From a virus (lineage: Duplodnaviria > Heunggongvirae > Uroviricota > Caudoviricetes): 6,995 nucleotides of DNA. The notes beneath the pieces were generated by a model. The model was given only the letters and a program-made list of their open reading frames with translations, was not told where the DNA came from and ran no database searches. How positions within the stretch are numbered: the stretch's first letter is position 1; every line of letters begins with the position of its first letter. The position numbers and the translations under genes were made by a program. This document shows, piece after piece, positions 1 through 6,995 of the stretch. The DNA lies in the IMG/VR virus record IMGVR_UViG_2675903654_000024, positions 1 to 6,995 of that record; one strand, written 5' to 3'.

Positions 1-1032
1 GAAGGCTGGGCCATACTCCTCCGGCAGAAGCAGAAAAAGCTTATTATGCTTCCATCGGAAACGATGATCTGGCAGCCTGAGTTCACAGATAAAACACTCT
101 CCAGGAAACCCGGGGCGGTTCAGATCGCAAGACAGGAACGGCTTGGGACGTCTGCCAATCAAAGCCTGCTTACATCCTTGCGTAACCTACGTGAAGAATT
201 AGCAAACCCTGCAACTGATTTGGATGTTACGTTTGATCTCTTGCGTCAGCACAGAACAGCATTTAGATCTAATGTTCAGGGAGATGCTATGGTCTTCCCC
301 AACCAGGCAAAAGCAGCTACCAATATGGTAGAGAATGCAATGTCAAAAGACCTTCGTAACGCAGTTGCTAAAAACCTCGGTGCATCAGACGCAGCAAAAT
401 ACCTTAAAGCAAATTCCGATTATGCAAACGTTTATAATAAGGTGCTTAATAAAAACATTGCTAACAAGCTCAATAAGGCAAGTAGTGAAGCCAGCCCTGA
501 ACTTATAAGTACCGTTGTATTAAGCAGAAAACCATCTGACGTGAAACGAATCTGGAGCGCACTGGATGATAAGGGGAAAGATGCTATGCGTGCAGCTTAC
601 GTCAGCAAAATAGCGGAAAAGGCCGGGGACTCTCCAGCCAAGTTCATCACTGAAGTTAATAAGCTGAAATCTCAGTCAGGCGGTGAAATTTACAACACTA
701 TTTTTTCTGGAAAGCACATGAAAGAGCTTGATGCTCTTCATGAAGTTCTACAGCAAACAGCAAGGTCAGACACCGCAAATGTAGTAACTCAGACGGGGCA
801 ATTGCAAGCCAACAGGATAAGGACGATTGGCGCAACTGCGACCCTTGGTGTATCACTGGGACTTGAGGCTGGTTTCGGTGCAATCATGCGCTTGTATGAG
901 TCCAAAGCAGCAAGGAATGCTCTCTTACGTCTGGCAAACACCAAAGCAGGAACGCCAGCCTATGAAAGAGCGTTAAGTAACGCTGCAAATGCCGTCAGGC
1001 CGCTGTTTGCTACTGAGGCAACACGGCAGTAA
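1..1032 (+). CDS. Virion ejection / DNA-transfer protein (P22 gp16-like), 3' portion; gene starts upstream of the window
   Basis: The reading frame of the listed 46..1032 ORF is open from base 1 (gaa ggc tgg ... no stop before the Met at 46), and there is no Shine-Dalgarno before the ATG at 46, so the gene most likely continues upstream. The protein is Ala/Lys/Asn/Ser-rich and low in complexity, typical of internal ejection proteins. Its position immediately upstream of the immI module matches the P22 order 16 - (sieA) - mnt - arc - ant - 9. Product assignment is by synteny and composition, not by recognised sequence identity. Confidence 0.5.
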
Positions 1033-1056
1033 CGTATGGGAAATTGGATTCAATCG

Positions 1057-1446
1057 CTAACATTTTCTTTTTACTTTTCCAACAAAAGCTTTGGTTGAAT
1101 CCATATTTCCATAACCGGAAATGGTTTTTGACATTAAAACTGTTCCAGTAGGATGTATTACCCATGAGTCGATAACGCGTTGAGTTTCGCCATTCGCGCC
1201 GATTCCTATGATGGAGTTTTTAGACAATTCTTTGTAAGCCATGCCGCCCGCATCTGTCCCAGAATATGTGATGCTGGCATCTTCACCGCTTGTCTTAATG
1301 ATGAATGTTCCACTAAAACCATCTTCTTCCGGATGGAAATTATTTCGCTCTGAATAGCTTATTCCGCGCATATCTCCAACGACCCAGCACTCTGCTGTAG
1401 CCCCAAAAGATATGAATAAGAACATAGCAGCAAGAAATTGCTTCAC
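1057..1446 (-). CDS. Sec-signal-peptide secreted/periplasmic protein of unknown function (prophage cargo gene)
   Basis: GTG start (plus-strand cac at 1444..1446) preceded on the coding strand by a strong AAGGAGG Shine-Dalgarno (plus-strand cctcctt at 1452..1458, 5-nt spacer). N-terminus MKQFLAAMFLFISFGATA/EC has a basic n-region, hydrophobic core and A-T-A cleavage motif. There is no lipobox (Cys is not at +1). The mature ~111 aa has two Cys, one near each end. Confidence 0.7.
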   Translation of the reverse strand: MKQFLAAMFLFISFGATAECWVVGDMRGISYSERNNFHPEEDGFSGTFIIKTSGEDASITYSGTDAGGMAYKELSKNSIIGIGANGETQRVIDSWVIHPTGTVLMSKTISGYGNMDSTKAFVGKVKRKC

Positions 1447-1814
1447 ACCAACCTCCTTAGTTTTGAGCAGGATACCAGATGATACTTTATTGGTGGAGTG
1501 GTGTGTGAAAACGTGTCAACGACAAACCATCCACAACTTGGACGAATGATTTAGCAAAAAGTGCTATTTTTGGTGTTTGGTGTCATAGAAACGTGAATAG
1601 CTTACTTTTCAACATTGCATGAAACTTGCAGGAAATGTGACATTACCTTATAGGTAACTTCGGCGAAAATGCAGTAAATGTGAAACGTAATGGTTTAAAC
1701 ATGTCGCTAAAGTGGTTGTAAGTTAGCCTCCGAAGGATTGCTGATAGCTTTGTTATAGTATTAAATGACATTTGACATAGTTGGATACTTAGCTGCGGCT
1801 ATCAAGATGGAGGT

Positions 1815-2264
1815 ATGTTTATGCTCACTTGTTTTGATGTCGCCGACTACTTCTTGGCGCATTGCGATGAAGAAAGTGGCGACATTATCTCTAACCTAAA
1901 AATTCAGAAGTTGACGTATTATGCCCAAGGGTTTTCTCTGGTTCTTCTGGGTAAGCCGCTATTTAATGAGAAAATTGAAGCCTGGATGCATGGGCCAGTA
2001 GTTCCTGAATTGTATCGTAAATATAGGGACTGTGGTAACGGCGCTTTACCTGCGCCAGAAAACTTTGACGCTAAAAAATTCAGTGAAGATGAAATTGAAT
2101 TGCTGGATGAGGTGTATAAAGTTTATGGTCAGTTTTCTGCCTGGAAACTGCGCAATATGACTCACGAAGAGCAGCCATGGAAAGATGCTTACATTGAGGG
2201 TGCGGTTAGCCAAGAAATCACACTTGATTCTATGAAAGGTTTTTTCAAAACGTTAATTAACTGA
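1815..2264 (+). CDS. Panacea/DUF4065-domain protein (PanA/SocA-type antitoxin-like)
   Basis: Residues ~27-67 (NLKIQKLTYYAQGFSLVLLGKPLFNEKIEAWMHGPVVPELY) match the signature I recall for DUF4065/Panacea 'phage-associated protein' family members (KLQKLLYYAQ ... GKPLF ... EAWxxGPVxPxxY). Size (147-149 aa) fits the family. GGAGG at 1809..1813 is 1 nt from the ATG at 1815 and 7 nt from the in-frame ATG at 1821, so 1821 is the more likely true start. TTGACA hexamer at 1772..1777 upstream. Confidence 0.7.
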   Translation: MFMLTCFDVADYFLAHCDEESGDIISNLKIQKLTYYAQGFSLVLLGKPLFNEKIEAWMHGPVVPELYRKYRDCGNGALPAPENFDAKKFSEDEIELLDEVYKVYGQFSAWKLRNMTHEEQPWKDAYIEGAVSQEITLDSMKGFFKTLIN

Positions 2265-2269
2265 CGTGT

Positions 2270-2692
2270 ATGTCTAGAGTTAAGGGAAGAATAAAACAGA
2301 GGGATAAAGAGAGCTCTGCTACTGTTGGCCTCTCTATCCATCACGAATCTCATGATGTAGACAAAAGTCCGCCTGTATTTTCTCTTAGATACCTACAAAA
2401 GGGGTATTGCCTAGATTGCTGCCAAAAGCATGAAAAGGCAGCATTTGCAGATAGGCTGTTCAGGTTAAGTCAGATGTCATGGGATGAGATACGAAAATCT
2501 GATAAACACGGGCTTGGGACGGAAAAAATTGCCAGAAACGCGATAAAGGCTCCGATTCCTAAGCATGTTACTCAAGATGTGGATTTCATTGCGTTCAGAT
2601 TTTGCTCTAAGGCACCTATGGTTGGTTATAAGATAGGAGCCACTTTTTATGTCTTATGGCTCGACAGGGAGTTCAAGCTATACAAGCACTAA
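2270..2692 (+). CDS. Hypothetical basic protein; candidate toxin/effector partner co-transcribed with the Panacea-domain gene
   Basis: ATG at 2270 lies 5 nt after the upstream stop (tga 2262..2264) with no independent Shine-Dalgarno, suggesting translational coupling. 140 aa, Lys/Arg/His-rich, no hydrophobic segment, a CLDCC cysteine cluster, and a C-terminus (GYKIGATFYVLWLDREFKLYKH) loosely reminiscent of RelE/ParE-type toxin C-termini; that resemblance is weak and unverified. Followed immediately by a strong intrinsic terminator. Confidence 0.6.
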   Translation: MSRVKGRIKQRDKESSATVGLSIHHESHDVDKSPPVFSLRYLQKGYCLDCCQKHEKAAFADRLFRLSQMSWDEIRKSDKHGLGTEKIARNAIKAPIPKHVTQDVDFIAFRFCSKAPMVGYKIGATFYVLWLDREFKLYKH

Positions 2693-2693
2693 T

Positions 2694-2719
2694 AAAACCC
2701 ACCGTCAGGTGGGTTTTTT
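2694..2719. terminator. Bidirectional rho-independent terminator between the convergent Panacea operon and the zinc-ribbon gene
   Basis: Perfect 10-bp stem AAAACCCACC (2694..2703) / GGTGGGTTTT (2708..2717), 4-nt loop GTCA, T-run 2714..2719 on the plus strand and an A-run on the left flank (U-run for the minus-strand transcript). Lies 1 nt after the stop of 2270..2692 and 17 nt after the stop of the minus-strand gene 2736..2939. Confidence 0.75.
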
Positions 2720-2735
2720 GTTGGAGATAAAATGG

Positions 2736-2939
2736 TTAACCAAATCGATCCTTAAAGCGTCTATCGCTGTTGCGTCTCTCCATTTTACTGTTGCAGTACG
2801 GACAAAGATGCTGTTTCTTTCCATCGATAGTCCATGTGAAGTACTTTTTCTTAAATCCAGCACCACAGATATCGCAACTTCTTGGTTTAAACATGCTGGC
2901 TATGAAGACAAGAACAACAAATCCTATGATCCATTCCAT
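2736..2939 (-). CDS. Small membrane-anchored zinc-ribbon protein (N-terminal transmembrane helix plus CxxC-N20-CxxC)
   Basis: 67 aa. N-terminal hydrophobic segment MEWIIGFVVLVFIASMF, then CDIC ... CPYC with about 20 residues between the Cys pairs (zinc-ribbon pattern), and a basic C-terminal tail. Weak AGGT ribosome-binding site upstream on the minus strand. The two overlapping plus-strand ORFs lack these protein-like features. Confidence 0.6.
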   Translation of the reverse strand: MEWIIGFVVLVFIASMFKPRSCDICGAGFKKKYFTWTIDGKKQHLCPYCNSKMERRNSDRRFKDRFG

Positions 2940-3080
2940 ATCATGTACCTGTTTTAACTTTATTTTTTGTTTTTTAGGGATTAATCAGAAACTTTATCTT
3001 GCGATTAAGCAAAGCTACTAGCTAACAAAAGAGTGCGTATACAATCAATCGTTTCACATCAACCTCAACAAGGAGAAATC

Positions 3081-3266
3081 ATGACCATAGAAGAACGCCT
3101 GAACAACATTGAGTTGAACCAAACCCTGCTTGACCAGCGACTTTCAGATCTTGAGCTTAAAGATCTTGATGCGCAAATATCAGAAGCAGAAGCCAAGCTC
3201 TCCAGCCTAAACCACCGCAAGAAGCAAATCCGCAACAGAATTACTCAGGGACGCGGAAGCTGTTGA
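3081..3266 (+). CDS. Small coiled-coil protein, hypothetical
   Basis: ATG at 3081 is preceded by AAGGAG (3070..3075) at 5-nt spacing. The listed ORF start at 3033 is a GTG without a good ribosome-binding site, so I take 3081 as the start (61 aa). Sequence is Glu/Leu/Lys/Asn-rich (IEERLNNIELNQTLLDQRLSDLELKDLDAQISEAEAKL), consistent with a coiled coil. Its 3' end overlaps the convergent gene 3241..3450 by 26 bp. Confidence 0.5.
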   Translation: MTIEERLNNIELNQTLLDQRLSDLELKDLDAQISEAEAKLSSLNHRKKQIRNRITQGRGSC

Positions 3267-3450
3267 GGTGGGATGCTAGGTCTCTATCGTTAAAATCAAG
3301 GCTGCTAATCATTTCATTGTAAATGGCGTTTTTATCTTCCATTGGCAGTCTTGAGTAAACCAGACACAGAGCATATTTCAGGGAGTTTAGCTCTTTCTCT
3401 AGCTCTTCCTTGCTTGACGTTTTTGACTTAATAAACTGTTTTTTATTCAT
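3241..3450 (-). CDS. Hypothetical 69-aa protein translationally coupled to the end of mnt
   Basis: Its start codon overlaps the mnt stop in an ATGA arrangement (plus-strand tcat at 3447..3450), the classic sign of co-transcription and translational coupling with the upstream Mnt-like gene. No recognisable domain. Confidence 0.55.
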   Translation of the reverse strand: MNKKQFIKSKTSSKEELEKELNSLKYALCLVYSRLPMEDKNAIYNEMISSLDFNDRDLASHLNSFRVPE

Positions 3451-3695
3451 TTTGCATCCTTACCATACATGGTTTTCAGTGTTTCAAGCAGCGCCTCTTT
3501 GAATTTGTCAGCTTCTTGCTGAGCAAATGACTCAACTGACTTTGGCGACCTATCTTCATCAATCGCGGCTTGCAAAATCATGACGATCTCGGAGTTAACA
3601 GAGCGACCATTTTTTGATGCTCTGACAGCAAGAGCCTCGCGCAAAGATTCAGGGATTCTTACCGTAGTTGGAGAAATTGACACACCCTTTGCCAT
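3447..3695 (-). CDS. mnt: Mnt-like ribbon-helix-helix repressor (immI maintenance-of-lysogeny repressor)
   Basis: 82 aa. The N-terminal segment VRIPESLREALAVRASKNGRSVNSEIVMILQAAI aligns with the P22 Mnt motif as I recall it (FRMPMEVREKLKFRAEANGRSMNSELLQIVQDAL). Divergent from an Arc-like gene, as in P22 immI. AGGTG Shine-Dalgarno upstream on the minus strand. Confidence 0.85.
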   Translation of the reverse strand: MAKGVSISPTTVRIPESLREALAVRASKNGRSVNSEIVMILQAAIDEDRSPKSVESFAQQEADKFKEALLETLKTMYGKDAK

Positions 3696-3809
3696 AGCAC
3701 ACCTTTGGTATTCAATTTGATATCAAAGTGTATGCAAAAGAAATTTGACTAGATATACTCACTTTGCTATCTTTTGTATTCGAAAAGAGTCGCTTGTGCG
3801 GAGGGTAAC
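3696..3809. promoter_or_regulatory. Divergent immI control region (candidate Pant, Pmnt and Arc/Mnt operators)
   Basis: 114-bp gap between divergent mnt and arc. Plus strand: TTGACT (3745..3750), 17 bp, TATCTT (3768..3773) as candidate Pant, about 35 nt upstream of arc. Inverted repeat AGATA (3751..3755) / TATCT (3768..3772) sits inside that spacer, where the Arc operator lies in P22. Perfect 12-bp palindrome TTTGATATCAAA at 3716..3727, 21 bp upstream of the mnt start. Operator assignments are by analogy to P22 only. Confidence 0.55.
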
Positions 3810-3962
3810 ATGGAGAAAGAAATAAGTAAGATTTTGGTAAGGATGCCGCAGTCGTTAAAGGACGCTATCGGTAGCAGGGCAAAGGAAGAATGCCGGTCGT
3901 TTAACTCGGAAGTGATTAAGCGGTTGATAGACAGCCTGAAGAGAGAGGGGATAACGGTGTGA
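3810..3962 (+). CDS. arc: Arc-like ribbon-helix-helix repressor
   Basis: The listed ORF starts at 3774, but the in-frame ATG at 3810 is preceded by GGAGGG (3800..3805), giving 50 aa. The sequence KILVRMPQSLKDAIGSRAKEECRSFNSEVIKRLIDSLKREG aligns with P22 Arc as I recall it (FNLRWPREVLDLVRKVAEENGRSVNSEIYQRVMESFKKEG). Divergent from mnt, upstream of ant. Confidence 0.85.
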   Translation: MEKEISKILVRMPQSLKDAIGSRAKEECRSFNSEVIKRLIDSLKREGITV

Positions 3963-4114
3963 TTCGCTTGGATGCAGTAGTCAAAGAGATTGCGATTACC
4001 ATTTTAAGACCAAATTTTGTTCATGGCGAATCATTTGGCACGAACGAAAAATTGAGAAGAGAAAGAGTATTCAGTGGCAAGCGCACATTTTCAGAAGTGA
4101 TGCTTGATGCGGCA

Positions 4115-4194
4115 AAGAAATCAAAACAGTGAAGCCCCAACTGCGGTAACAGTCAGGGCTTCGGTTGTCGGTAAATTCGTGGAGAAAAACCAAC
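4115..4194 (-). ncRNA. Candidate sar-like antisense RNA covering the ant ribosome-binding site (approximate ends)
   Basis: Minus-strand extended -10 (TGcTATACT; plus-strand AGTATA at 4201..4206 with gca at 4207..4209) would start transcription near 4193, running leftward across the ant Shine-Dalgarno (GGAGA 4181..4185). The hairpin at 4131..4162 forms a fully paired 13-bp stem (two G-U pairs, loop UUACCG) only in the minus-strand RNA, followed by U-rich ACUGUUUUGAUUUCUUU; the plus-strand version has two C-A mismatches. P22 has a ~69-nt sar RNA with this role. Ends are inferred, not measured. Confidence 0.4.
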
Positions 4195-5097
4195 ATGAAT
4201 AGTATAGCAATTTTAGAAGCAGTGAACACCTCTTACGTACCATTCAACGGTCAGCAAATTATCACCGCCATGGCTGCCGGAGTTGCATATGTTGCGATGA
4301 AGCCAATCGTTGAAAACCTTGGAATGAGCTGGTCAACGCAGCAAACAAAACTCATGAAGCAGATTAGCAAATTCAACTGTGTTCATATGAACATGGTTGC
4401 CGCTGATGGGAAGCTTCGTAAGCTACTCTGCCTTCCTTTGAAGAAGTTAAATGGATGGCTGTTCAGCATCAACCCCGAGAAAGTTCGAGCTGACATCCGC
4501 GATAAACTGATTCAGTACCAGGAAGAATGCTTTACTGTACTGCATGACTACTGGACAAAGGGAAAGGCAGAAAATGCACGTAAGAAAACATCTGTTGATG
4601 ACAGGACTCCGCTTCGTGATGCTGTAAATATGCTAGTCAGCAAAAAGCATCTAATGTACCCAGAAGCTTATGCAATGATTCATCAGCGTTTCAATGTGGA
4701 AAGTATTGAAGAGCTTGATGCATCTCAGATACCGCAAGCCGTAGAGTACATCCACAGGGTAGTGCTTGAAGGTGAGTTCATCGGCAAACAAGAGAAGAAG
4801 CCCAACGGGCTTTCCGCAAAAGAAACAGACATCCTTGTATGGCTGTGGGATTATGCCAACCGCTCACAGGCATTATTCCGCGAACTGTATCCGGCGCTGA
4901 AACAAATTCAATCGAACTATTCCGGCAGATGTCATGACTGCGGTTATGAGTTCTCCCGTATTATCGATATAGCGAGAGACGTTTTAATCAATCACACACT
5001 AGATGTTGATATTAATGAGCCAGACGGACCAACGAATCGTTCCGCATGGATGAGACTTAAGAATAAAGAATTACCTCCTTCAGTACATAACTACTGA
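4195..5097 (+). CDS. ant: Antirepressor Ant (P22 Ant-like)
   Basis: The listed ORF begins at a TTG (4165), but the in-frame ATG at 4195 follows GGAGA (4181..4185) and gives exactly 300 aa, the length of P22 Ant. It is directly downstream of arc and upstream of the tailspike gene, as in P22 immI. Identity is by synteny and length; my recall of the P22 Ant sequence itself is partial. Confidence 0.8.
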
Positions 5098-5115
5098 CAG
5101 ATAACCAACGCAACG

Positions 5116-5140
5116 ACCCAGCTTCGGCTGGGTTTTTTTT
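5116..5140 (+). terminator. Rho-independent terminator downstream of ant
   Basis: Stem ACCCAGC (5116..5122) / GCTGGGT (5127..5133) with a TTCG tetraloop, followed by an 8-T run (5133..5140), 19 nt after the ant stop codon. Confidence 0.8.
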
Positions 5141-5198
5141 ATGCCCAAAATTCACCGTAGCCATGCTGCGGCGATTCCTTGCATCTGGAGCAAATTAA

Positions 5199-6995
5199 AT
5201 GACAGACATTACAGCCAATGTGATCGTATCGATGCCTTCGCAACTCTTCACTATGGCGCGTTCTTTTAAAGCGGTTGCCAATGGCAAAATTTATATTGGT
5301 AAAATTGACACTGACCCTGTAAATCCTGAAAACCAGATTCAGGTTTATGTGGAGAACGAAGATGGTTCTCACGTCCCTGTTTCGCAACCAATCACCATTA
5401 ACGCTGCTGGTTATCCGGTATATAACGGACAGATTGCCAAGTTCGTAACTGTACAGAATCACTCCATGGCTGTTTATGATGCATATGGTGCACAACAATT
5501 CTATTATCCTGATCTACTTAAATATTCTCCAGACCAGTTAAGGGCTGAGCTTTCTGGCCCTGATGGCGCATCTCTGGTTGGTTATGGAGGCACAACCGTA
5601 AAGATTGAGCTGGAGATCTTGAAAGCTACACATGATTCATTAATTGATAAAACAGGATTTAACGCTATTGGCCGCTTTCTCAATCTTTCAGAGCTTCGCT
5701 CCTGTGTTCCAGAGGAGGCAGGGCAGATTGTATACGTAGCATCAGCAGCTAGCACTACACATGCTGAAAACCACCTTGGTGGCGGCTTTTTCGAGTCTGT
5801 TGATAACATTCAGGCGTGGGCTGATGATGGTGGAATTGTAATCAAGCCAGAAACTGGAACGATGGTATGGAGACGAATTAATTTTACCACTTACGACATG
5901 CAATTTTGGGGGGTGAAACCTGACGGAGTCACAGATAACGCAACAGCTATAACTCTTGCAACTAACTTTGCCCGCTCAAACAAATGCATTCTAGAGGCTC
6001 CTGCTGGAAACATAAATACATCAAAAACAATCCCAATTTATGACAATATGGGAATTAGAGGACAGGGAAAGGCTGAAGCGACAGTTTTTTATAAAACAAC
6101 AAATGACAAAATAGATCTCACAAAAAATGGAGAAGTAATTCTTCAGGTGGATGCATTATGTGCTTTTATACCAAAGCAATGGGATCTAACAGATAACTCA
6201 ATGAGTTCATTTTGTGTTAACGGTAGAGTTGAAAACTGCATGTTTAGAAGGCTTGGCTTAACACAAGAAAATGTAGATTCTTATAGAAATTATTACGGAC
6301 TGTTTTTAGGAAAATCAGCAGCACCAGTTATCAGACAGTCAATTTTTGAATGTGCTTATATCGGATGCTTCTCTTATGTGCCGTTCTCTGGCGTAATGGA
6401 AATGGTCGGTTTCCCACAATATCCAGGGAAAGGATATGCTGGAGTTTTATTTGAAGATTTTAGGGATGGTCAAATAAAAGTAATAGGCACTTCTATGGAT
6501 ATGCGCCTTGTTCAGGTTAACGGTTACCAGTTGTCATTTAGAATGTCAGGAATGCAATATACCACCATGACCAATTGTACTGCTGAAAACTGCACGCCAA
6601 TGGATGGGGAGTCAATTTGCTATGCATTTGATTTTGTAAATCCGTATTGCATTGTCATGAATACTTGTGCAACAGAATTTGTTAAGGGTGGGCAACTTCG
6701 TGTTAGCGTTCAGGGAAACCCATCATTCAGACCATCTATTATTGTCAATGGCTTTCTGCCAATTGATCAACAAAGCCCGGTAGTGCAAACACCTATAATA
6801 GATATTGATAATGGTGGCGTAGTTGAAATGAGTGTCATATTAAATGGTGGAGATTGGGCTATAAATCCATCTGCTACAAATTTAGCCGTACCAAGAGCAA
6901 GCGGAAATGGGTTGAAAGCAAGGTTAATAGGTGTAAACGGGTCGCCTGTTTCGATCTGGAGCGTGTCTCCTGGCGCAGATGTGAAGGAGTTCTAA
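5199..6995 (+). CDS. Tailspike protein: P22 gp9-like N-terminal head-binding domain fused to a divergent receptor-binding domain
   Basis: GGAG at 5187..5190, 8 nt before the ATG. The first ~113 aa ([34 protein letters not shown] ... DGSHV ... INAAG ... VYNGQ ... VTVQ.HSMA.YDA ... LKYSPDQ) closely match the P22 gp9 head-binding domain as I recall it. The remaining ~485 aa has no similarity I recognise to the P22 receptor-binding domain; it is Asn/Gly/Cys-rich with recurring VNG/LNG/IDNGG motifs suggesting a beta-helix or beta-rich fold. Complete ORF ending at taa 6993..6995. Confidence 0.9.

Follow-up and report, generated by a model that had tools for sequence, protein, structure and literature searches.

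A probable chain of exchanged cassettes in the ant moron of a P22-like prophage

The interval between gene 16 and gene 9 of the P22-like phages was named the "ant moron" by Villafane et al. (2008; BMC Microbiol 8:227; PMC2629481), who distinguished "ten types in sixteen genomes" and described it as variable in length and in its set of genes, in "rapid flux" and missing from Sf6 and APSE, a description that is taken up again in the phage L genome paper. The gene sieA is present in only 22 of 66 P22-like phages (Leavitt et al., 2024; PMC10883804), and the sieA paper (Hofer, 1995) is among those that a 2024 article on defence cites for recognised hotspots of immunity. The subject of the present analysis is the interval 1057 to 3450 of a 6,995-nucleotide stretch of viral DNA (IMG/VR virus record IMGVR_UViG_2675903654_000024, positions 1 to 6,995), hereafter the window, which comes from a P22-like (Lederbergvirus) prophage and corresponds to the right end of its late operon. 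With a probability of roughly 0.8, this interval, referred to below as the island, makes up the left half of that prophage's ant moron and is organized as a chain of exchanged cassettes. It resembles the ant morons already described in that it lies between homologues of gene 16 and gene 9 and combines mnt-arc-sar-ant with additional genes, and in that its length and content vary while the flanking assembly genes are conserved. The genes of an ant moron are expected to be expressed apart from the late operon and to play no part in morphogenesis or lysis; for the island, mixed orientations and a bidirectional terminator are indirect hints of such an expression. It differs in its set of genes, which is not among the 16 genomes of the original paper (PMC2629481), and the sampling is denser here (76 loci with 44 layouts), with two slots and their junction sequences resolved. 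The window therefore holds a new gene combination in a known hotspot and not a new kind of element.

The island contains six small genes: orf129 (1057..1446, minus strand), for a secreted protein with a predicted eight-stranded beta-barrel; PanA (1815..2264, plus strand), for an antitoxin-like Panacea-domain (DUF4065) protein of 149 amino acids; orf140 (2270..2692, plus strand), for the conserved partner of PanA, with a predicted RelE/ParE-superfamily fold; orf67 (2736..2939, minus strand), for a small membrane-anchored zinc-ribbon protein; orf61 (from 3033 or, more likely, 3081 to 3266, plus strand), for a coiled-coil protein; and orf69 (3241..3450, minus strand), a small open reading frame (ORF) coupled to mnt. 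Each of them is independently supported by conservation, and all six are real, conserved genes. Their number had been correctly anticipated in a preliminary description of this DNA, as had their alternating orientations (the order observed is -, +, +, -, +, -), and the layout that it gave, with a gp16-like gene on the left, mnt on the right and sieA at this place in P22, was confirmed by matches to PHROG, Pfam and Rfam and by comparison with P22, where the order is the same and sieA lies immediately after gene 16 on the opposite strand.

The relatives used for comparison were 80 IMG/VR loci in which the C-terminus of gp16 is more than 93% identical to that of the window, together with phage and E. 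coli records; the coverage map is based on 82 relatives, and the statistics of interval length and layout on 76 loci. On the left side, positions 101-1050 are common to 79-82 of the 82 relatives and, on the right side, the head-binding domain of the tailspike (5199-5540, 71-96% identical to the domain of the relatives) is common to 56-73 of them. Between these flanks the content changes abruptly. The part that corresponds to orf129 and its leader (1051-1500) is found in 43-58 relatives, and at about position 1500 the sharing falls from 43 loci to 4; PanA-orf140 (1501-2700) is common to 1-4 relatives, the orf67 part (2701-3050) to none, positions 3051-3300 to six and positions 3301-3450 to two. 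The mnt/arc alleles, common to 2-6 relatives (briefly 12), are up to about position 4120 as variable as the island, which means that the variable zone extends past 3450, where the preliminary description had placed its end. The distance between the stop codon of gp16 and the start of the tailspike ranges from 76 to 4,922 bp, and greedy ORF calling gives 57 protein clusters in 44 layouts. A scan of genome contigs with the gp16 C-terminus confirmed at least two loci as effectively empty sites, a Citrobacter contig and a metagenome bin (L003 and L004), in which that distance is 76-91 bp. Among phage records and complete E. coli genomes, none spans at least 80% of the window. These comparisons bear out the earlier proposal of a prophage cargo hotspot with conserved flanks and varying content, and the gene set of the window is not conserved at this position in the relatives.

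The manner in which the content varies was established from alignments of the window to ten relatives, which place recurrent breakpoints at 1033/1058, 1438-1499, 2719, 3070, 3449/3450, 4122-4130 and about 5540. The breakpoint at 2719, seen in PA45B, L039, Emek and phiv205-1, lies just beyond a bidirectional intrinsic terminator (2694..2717) between the convergent orf140 and orf67, whose hairpin has a folding energy of -15.8 kcal/mol (z -4.0) on one strand and of -15.4 kcal/mol (z -3.85) on the other and is followed on each of them by a U-run; the one at 3070/3071 is seen in GPEC1176, Emek and L044. The order of the genes in GPEC1176 is orf129, a P63C-domain gene and orf61-orf69-mnt, with the same tailspike, and therefore the P63C gene replaces PanA-orf140-orf67. 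PA45B has orf129, PanA-orf140, a ClpP-like gene and the same mnt allele, and in ETEC4085 the orf129 cassette is placed after orf61 and not after gp16. Judged from these alignments, the island appears to consist of four or more cassettes, joined end to end and exchanged independently of one another, rather than of one piece: orf129 (1034 to about 1500), PanA-orf140 with the terminator (about 1500-2719), orf67 (2720-3069) and orf61 with orf69 (3070-3449). The joints are gene boundaries, that is, start codons, stop codons and a terminator, and short conserved sequences at the joints probably permit recombination between related prophages. The gap between gene 16 and gene 9 would be the one place in the late operon that tolerates inserted genes.

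Where a first gene after gp16 is present in the relatives, it is always on the minus strand, and this position is called here slot 1. In the 76 loci it is occupied by orf129 (55 loci), a SieA homologue (12), a 62-amino-acid membrane protein (5), another membrane protein (2) or no gene (2), so that orf129 is the commonest occupant and not a rare cargo. The end of orf129 is about 24 nucleotides past the stop codon of gene 16, compared with 22 nucleotides for P22 sieA, which has the same strand. The same GTG, behind an identical Shine-Dalgarno sequence (AAGGAGGTTGGTGTG) and a leader of roughly 20 nucleotides, is the start of orf129, of P22 sieA and of at least three other types of ORF, and the coding sequences diverge right after it. 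Leader, Shine-Dalgarno sequence and GTG together form the right-hand junction of the slot-1 cassette (1444..1464, minus strand; AAAACTAAGGAGGTTGGTGTG), a 21-mer that is present in at least 120 IMG/VR contigs. The ORFs that start at this shared GTG (161 loci) belong to at least 13 unrelated families and lie, wherever their flanks were fetched, between a gp16 homologue and a tailspike, several gp16 alleles being involved; in 12 of the 13 families the protein has a transmembrane segment or a Sec signal peptide at its N-terminus. In the literature searched, which included few subscription journals, neither this junction nor the bias of slot 1 towards envelope proteins is described, and no claim of priority is made. 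The earlier statement that the island replaces sieA is correct for orf129, which has the slot, the leader and the GTG of sieA, and does not hold for the other five genes, which lie in a second slot where P22 has almost nothing.

The orf129 gene is supported by PHROG 2651 (E 9.5e-60) and by 22 clusters of homologues, which keep a Sec-type signal peptide and, down to 47% identity, the invariant Cys20 and Cys129, the former next to the predicted cleavage site and the latter at the C-terminus. The protein has a single N-terminal signal peptide and no hydrophobic segment that reaches a KD17 value of 1.6; the rest is predicted to be an all-beta barrel, and the AlphaFold2 models of both orf129 and orf140 are confident. 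It is probably a soluble barrel of the periplasm, with a disulfide between Cys20 and Cys129 that closes it. The likeness to P22 sieA consists in the position directly after gene 16, on the strand opposite to it and behind the same start signals, and in the predicted targeting to the envelope. SieA, however, is a multi-pass inner-membrane protein, whereas orf129 combines a cleavable signal peptide with a soluble-looking beta-barrel that has a terminal pair of cysteines. Escape from exclusion by SieA maps to the C-terminal parts of gp16 and gp20. Homology to SieA was considered and rejected (BLASTP against P22 SieA, E 1.1), and the SieA motif FxRYPxEAxxFNK is absent from the orf129 sequence. A similarity to Sf6 gene 38, noted in the Emek record, was not reproduced by tblastn at E<=1e-5, a search in which only Emek and ST-35 matched orf129 among 50,697 phage records. 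The lysogen would produce the protein and export it to the periplasm, where it most likely acts on the envelope, for instance against the delivery of DNA by an incoming phage; because of the slot that it shares with sieA, orf129 may provide an envelope function expressed by the prophage, possibly exclusion. More tentatively, the envelope proteins of slot 1 could be non-homologous blockers of DNA delivery, or could confer other protections at the level of the envelope.

The cargo found at this locus in the relatives includes SieA, Rap1a, P63C and ClpP-like proteins, a PIN-domain protein and a YafO toxin, each with a partner, a lipoprotein, and also extra antirepressors, an HNH protein and an insertion sequence (IS) element. 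The Rap1a-matching gene encodes a secreted protein of 111 amino acids (Pfam Rap1a, E 9.7e-15; about 9883-10218 in L008) and is found in 12 relatives (L008, L016-L020, L025, L027, L028, L031, L061 and L064), where, to judge from this match, it would be a prophage-borne immunity gene of a type VI secretion system. In the same slot, L060 (9805-10860) and L033 (9787-11045) carry pairs that resemble toxin-antitoxin (TA) modules, namely a YafO-family toxin with an upstream partner and a PIN-domain protein with an upstream partner of 239 amino acids. Such a mix of envelope proteins and TA-like pairs fits cargo that serves host benefit or defence. The defence hotspots of P2 prophages and P4 satellites (Rousset et al., 2022) are comparable in that conserved core genes flank a slot of high turnover with TA-like and exclusion genes. 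They differ in phage family and position, and the cargo of the present locus consists mostly of small envelope proteins and TA-like pairs which, in the proteins tested, have no PADLOC match save a weak hit of orf140 to an NsnC domain.

The second cassette consists of PanA and orf140, separated by 5 nucleotides. PanA matches the Pfam family SocA_Panacea (PF13274; E 2.2e-24, 87 bits against a cut-off of 25.7), scores below the cut-off of the NCBIfam model SocA_antitoxin, and is annotated as "Panacea domain-containing protein" in E. coli genomes. Its partner orf140 has 260 homologues, whose alignment shows 18 invariant columns and which come from enterobacteria, cyanobacteria and an archaeon; in the chromosomes of the cyanobacterium Aerosakkonema and of Providencia the pair stands by itself, in unrelated gene contexts. 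After 26 N-terminal residues that are predicted to be disordered, the model of orf140 shows the two helices packed on an antiparallel sheet that define the RelE/ParE superfamily. The protein has no Pfam family, a profile search of the PDB gave no match at E<=10, and its score is below the cut-off of the NCBIfam model MAG6450; it does match, weakly, the C-terminal domain of the Menshen defence protein NsnC (PADLOC, 29 bits, 1.8e-7). Its conserved residues include R79, H80, R89, R110, Y120, Y138 and H140. Basic and aromatic residues such as these are the kind used by the ribonucleases (RNases) of the RelE family, and they are compatible with an RNase site in orf140. With respect to toxins such as RelE, HigB, YoeB and YafQ, orf140 differs in the lack of a sequence-profile match in Pfam or the PDB, in the disordered N-terminal segment, being about 50 residues longer, and in its partner, which is PanA instead of RelB, HigA or YefM.

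An identical and intact orf140 of 140 amino acids is found in E. coli PA45B (L088, 4271-4693), and in UMNK88 the region is 98.5% identical (L086, about 3327-3749, as derived from the alignment to the window); in both of them the RefSeq/PGAP annotation has only the Panacea gene and none for orf140.

The closest studied relatives of the pair are those of phage Emek, which are 70% (PanA) and 58% (orf140) identical to the proteins of the window. In Dataset S1 of Kurata et al. (2022; PMC8832971), the Emek pair is listed as a predicted PanAT system of cluster T1, with "mRNase" as the HHpred assignment. The pair of the window is like those of cluster T1 in having a Panacea-domain protein and a conserved partner gene within a few nucleotides. 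It is unlike the validated systems in two respects: T1 was non-toxic when tested and is therefore outside the nine validated PanAT pairs (PMC8832971), and the validated RNase-type PanT proteins are MazF-like, whereas orf140 has a predicted RelE/ParE fold. On modelling and gene arrangement, PanA-orf140 resembles a type II TA module in which the effector has an RNase fold, although the relatives tested so far lacked the toxicity that defines such modules. In such a module orf140, which has the fold of ribosome-dependent mRNA endonucleases, would be held inactive by PanA, and the most likely role of the pair would be a trigger-dependent growth arrest or abortive infection.

Several results weigh against these functional proposals. 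The fold of orf129 is a generic small barrel, uninformative as to specific function. Among the six island proteins, PADLOC v2 gave only the weak NsnC-domain match of orf140 and coiled-coil noise for orf61, with no complete system, and ten cargo proteins from the relatives gave no match. The promoter scan of the island called 5 sites, compared with 6.9 expected from shuffled sequences, and none was above chance; the divergent intergenic region between orf129 and PanA (1465..1814; 38.6% GC over 1447-1814), in which no promoter-like site was called and no Rfam match was found, presumably holds the putative promoters of both genes. Finally, the T1 partners of Emek and of an E. coli prophage (MOD1) are recorded as "not toxic" in E. 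coli (PMC8832971), a result that speaks against a classical toxin, the Emek protein being 58% identical to orf140.

That last result, obtained by over-expression, is also an argument for the strongest alternative, according to which PanA-orf140 is a benign two-protein module, for example a regulator or a counter-defence factor, and its RelE-like domain is no inhibitor of growth; the lack of a match to any Pfam toxin family points in the same direction. This possibility is taken seriously and is considered rather unlikely, given that the tight bicistronic pairing is kept across phyla and in unrelated neighbourhoods, that the predicted fold is that of the RelE/ParE superfamily, that the conserved residues are of a kind found in RelE-family RNases, and that the same domain ends the defence protein NsnC. 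Besides, the construct tested for Emek (Kurata et al., 2022) is the annotated ORF of 161 amino acids (L001, 3317-3802), which overlaps PanA by 62 nucleotides and probably carries a spurious N-terminal extension of 21 amino acids, the alignment of homologues pointing to a real length of about 140; the "not toxic" result may thus come from an extended protein. The reading preferred here, with moderate confidence, is the trigger-dependent (abortive infection) role, under which the absence of toxicity on over-expression may reflect the need for a phage trigger. Much more tentative is a joint proposal, in which the sieA slot would be a plug-in position with a fixed leader, Shine-Dalgarno sequence and GTG, expressed in the lysogen and filled by at least 13 unrelated kinds of small envelope proteins that could block DNA delivery or protect the envelope in other ways, orf129 would be a new periplasmic exclusion factor, and PanA-orf140 would act by trigger-dependent abortive infection.

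The three remaining genes are orf67, orf61 and orf69. The first of them has homologues in 249 representative clusters at E<=1e-3, with an N-terminal transmembrane helix, a CxxC...CPxC pattern and the invariant residues C22, C25, C46, P47, C49 and S58; none of the 82 relatives sampled at first carries it, and it is present in 34 of 5,426 E. coli genomes, in most of which it is unannotated. In UMNK88, what is annotated there as a "hypothetical protein" is an ORF of 102 codons on the opposite strand (window 2649-2957, plus strand; L086, 3706-4014), probably a mis-call, because the homologues of orf67 keep the cysteine pattern. A divergent intergenic region with 31.9% GC (2940..3080) separates orf67 from orf61. 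The latter matches PHROG 7586 (E 7.2e-44) and is present in 6 of the 82 relatives; the alignment begins at residue 17 of an ORF of 77 amino acids, and therefore the start codon is taken to be the ATG at 3081, behind AAGGAG. As for orf69 (PHROG 16466, E 4.6e-51), E. coli and Salmonella are the only organisms named for its 46 clusters; the gene shares 26 nucleotides with orf61 at its 3' end, and its start overlaps the stop codon of mnt as ATGA, an arrangement by which it appears to be translationally coupled to the end of mnt.

This coupling, which would result in co-expression with mnt in the lysogen, raises the question of whether the mnt-proximal genes (orf69, orf61 and possibly orf67) belong to the immI antirepressor circuit as accessory components instead of being cargo in their own right. 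In P22, orf59a has an analogous position, and a block from orf67 through ant moves as a unit into a lambda-like prophage. Despite the ATGA coupling, however, orf69 and the mnt allele assort independently: in PA45B, L032 and L060 the mnt allele of the window (99%) is accompanied by a ClpP-like gene that takes the place of orf69, orf69 occurs in L044 with an mnt allele that is only 56% identical to that of the window, another gene separates orf69 from mnt in Emek, and a breakpoint falls exactly at 3449/3450. Homology between orf69 and P22 orf59a was also considered and rejected, there being no similarity. An accessory role in immI is consequently held to be improbable.

The base composition of the island was examined with regard to its origin. 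With 40.4% GC, the island is poorer than the gp16 part (46.3-46.4%, p 0.001) and than immI (43.8%, p 0.03), and does not differ significantly from the tailspike (41%); it is the stretch of lowest GC in the window, in which all 2.4-kb stretches lie within 40.3-44.0%. The GC content at third codon positions (GC3) of its coding sequences is 0.42, compared with 0.427 for the C-terminal part of gp16 (gp16C; p 0.89), 0.456 for immI (p 0.25) and 0.33 for the tailspike. Since the island equals gp16C and immI in GC3, its deficit comes from amino-acid composition (the first two codon positions) and from the AT-rich DNA between the genes (37.1% GC). In the 76 relatives the interval between gene 16 and gene 9 averages 42% GC, compared with 47.5% in the 3 kb upstream, whatever genes it contains. 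The AT-richness is therefore real, mild and region-wide, and the composition points to no single foreign donor. The preliminary description, which had called the island clearly more AT-rich than its flanks, was right as to the lower GC (by 3-6 points) and overstated the contrast, in that the GC and codon-usage comparison across the window, which it had proposed, gave no GC3 signal with respect to gp16C or immI.

The same data bear on the idea of a foreign genomic island of low GC, acquired as one piece from an AT-rich donor. It would agree with the island being the GC-poorest of the 2.4-kb stretches in the window and with its GC3 being below that of the head genes of a close relative (0.42 against 0.52-0.56; pooled p 0.008; chi-square for synonymous codons, p 0.002). 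Nevertheless, its GC3 equals that of the adjacent gp16 and immI and is exceeded in AT-richness by that of the tailspike, the low GC of the region is independent of its content, other P22-like prophages carry the pieces of the island separately, each gene block being set off from the next by a breakpoint, there is no flanking integrase or tRNA, and a search for repeats found no direct or inverted ones bounding the island, all of which makes a single acquisition very improbable. Least credible of all is that the spacer between gene 16 and mnt is decaying and that its small ORFs are functionless remnants or arose by chance, as might be supposed from the degraded genes reported in some ant morons (Villafane et al., 2008; PMC2629481), from the lack of a Pfam family for several island proteins and from the fact that PGAP leaves orf140 and orf67 unannotated in most E. 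coli genomes, given that orf140 is intact and identical in PA45B and has homologues across phyla with 18 invariant residues, that the homologues of orf67 retain the transmembrane helix and four cysteines and those of orf129 both cysteines to 47% identity, and that both AlphaFold2 models are confident.

Regarding the neighbouring genes, the left flank (1..1032, plus strand) encodes the C-terminal 344 codons of a gp16-like DNA-transfer (ejection) protein (PHROG 770, "DNA transfer protein", E 3.4e-126); the gene is truncated by the left edge of the window, has no in-frame stop over 1-1032 and ends at 1032. Positions 1-100, inside this gene, are common to only 3 of the 82 relatives, compared with at least 79 from position 101, which therefore indicates a mosaic breakpoint within the ejection gene. 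On the right is the immI module (3447..5097; Pfam Arc, twice, P22_AR_N and P22_AR_C; Rfam sar), formed by mnt (3447-3695, minus strand), arc (3774-3962, plus strand), orf57 (3959-4132, plus strand; PHROG 17642), the antisense sar RNA (4128-4194, minus strand; Rfam, 87.1 bits) and ant (about 4195-5097, plus strand). The ORF of 57 codons between arc and ant is shared with phiv205-1, L060 and PA45B; P22 has only the sar region there, and the last bases of orf57 overlap the start of sar at 4128, on the other strand. In the island itself (1057-3450), Rfam at a permissive threshold gave no RNA family, the sole match being a chance sroH fragment on the terminator. Beyond immI, the receptor-binding part of the tailspike (5541-6995) is common to only 1 of the 82 relatives and matches Stx phage TL-2011b at 95% (from 5644) and the chicken E. 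coli GPEC1176; the GC3 of the whole tailspike (0.33) is the lowest in the window.

For specialists in P22 the hotspot itself is textbook knowledge, and the main value of these observations is practical. The locus is a compact catalogue, easily amplified by polymerase chain reaction, of cargo that would be expressed by the prophage. Given that orf140 and orf67 are usually missing from the RefSeq annotations of E. coli that were inspected, surveys of TA and defence genes based on those annotations under-count them. The dataset of Kurata et al. (2022) mentions "pT1" 395 times, which suggests that T1 is a major cluster among the predicted Panacea partners, and the ant moron offers a natural context in which to study this cluster, so far non-toxic in tests. 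The parts worth experiment are this T1 pair and the pattern of slot 1, where a dozen uncharacterised envelope proteins, at the very site of SieA, are candidates for functions in superinfection exclusion or in the protection of the envelope.

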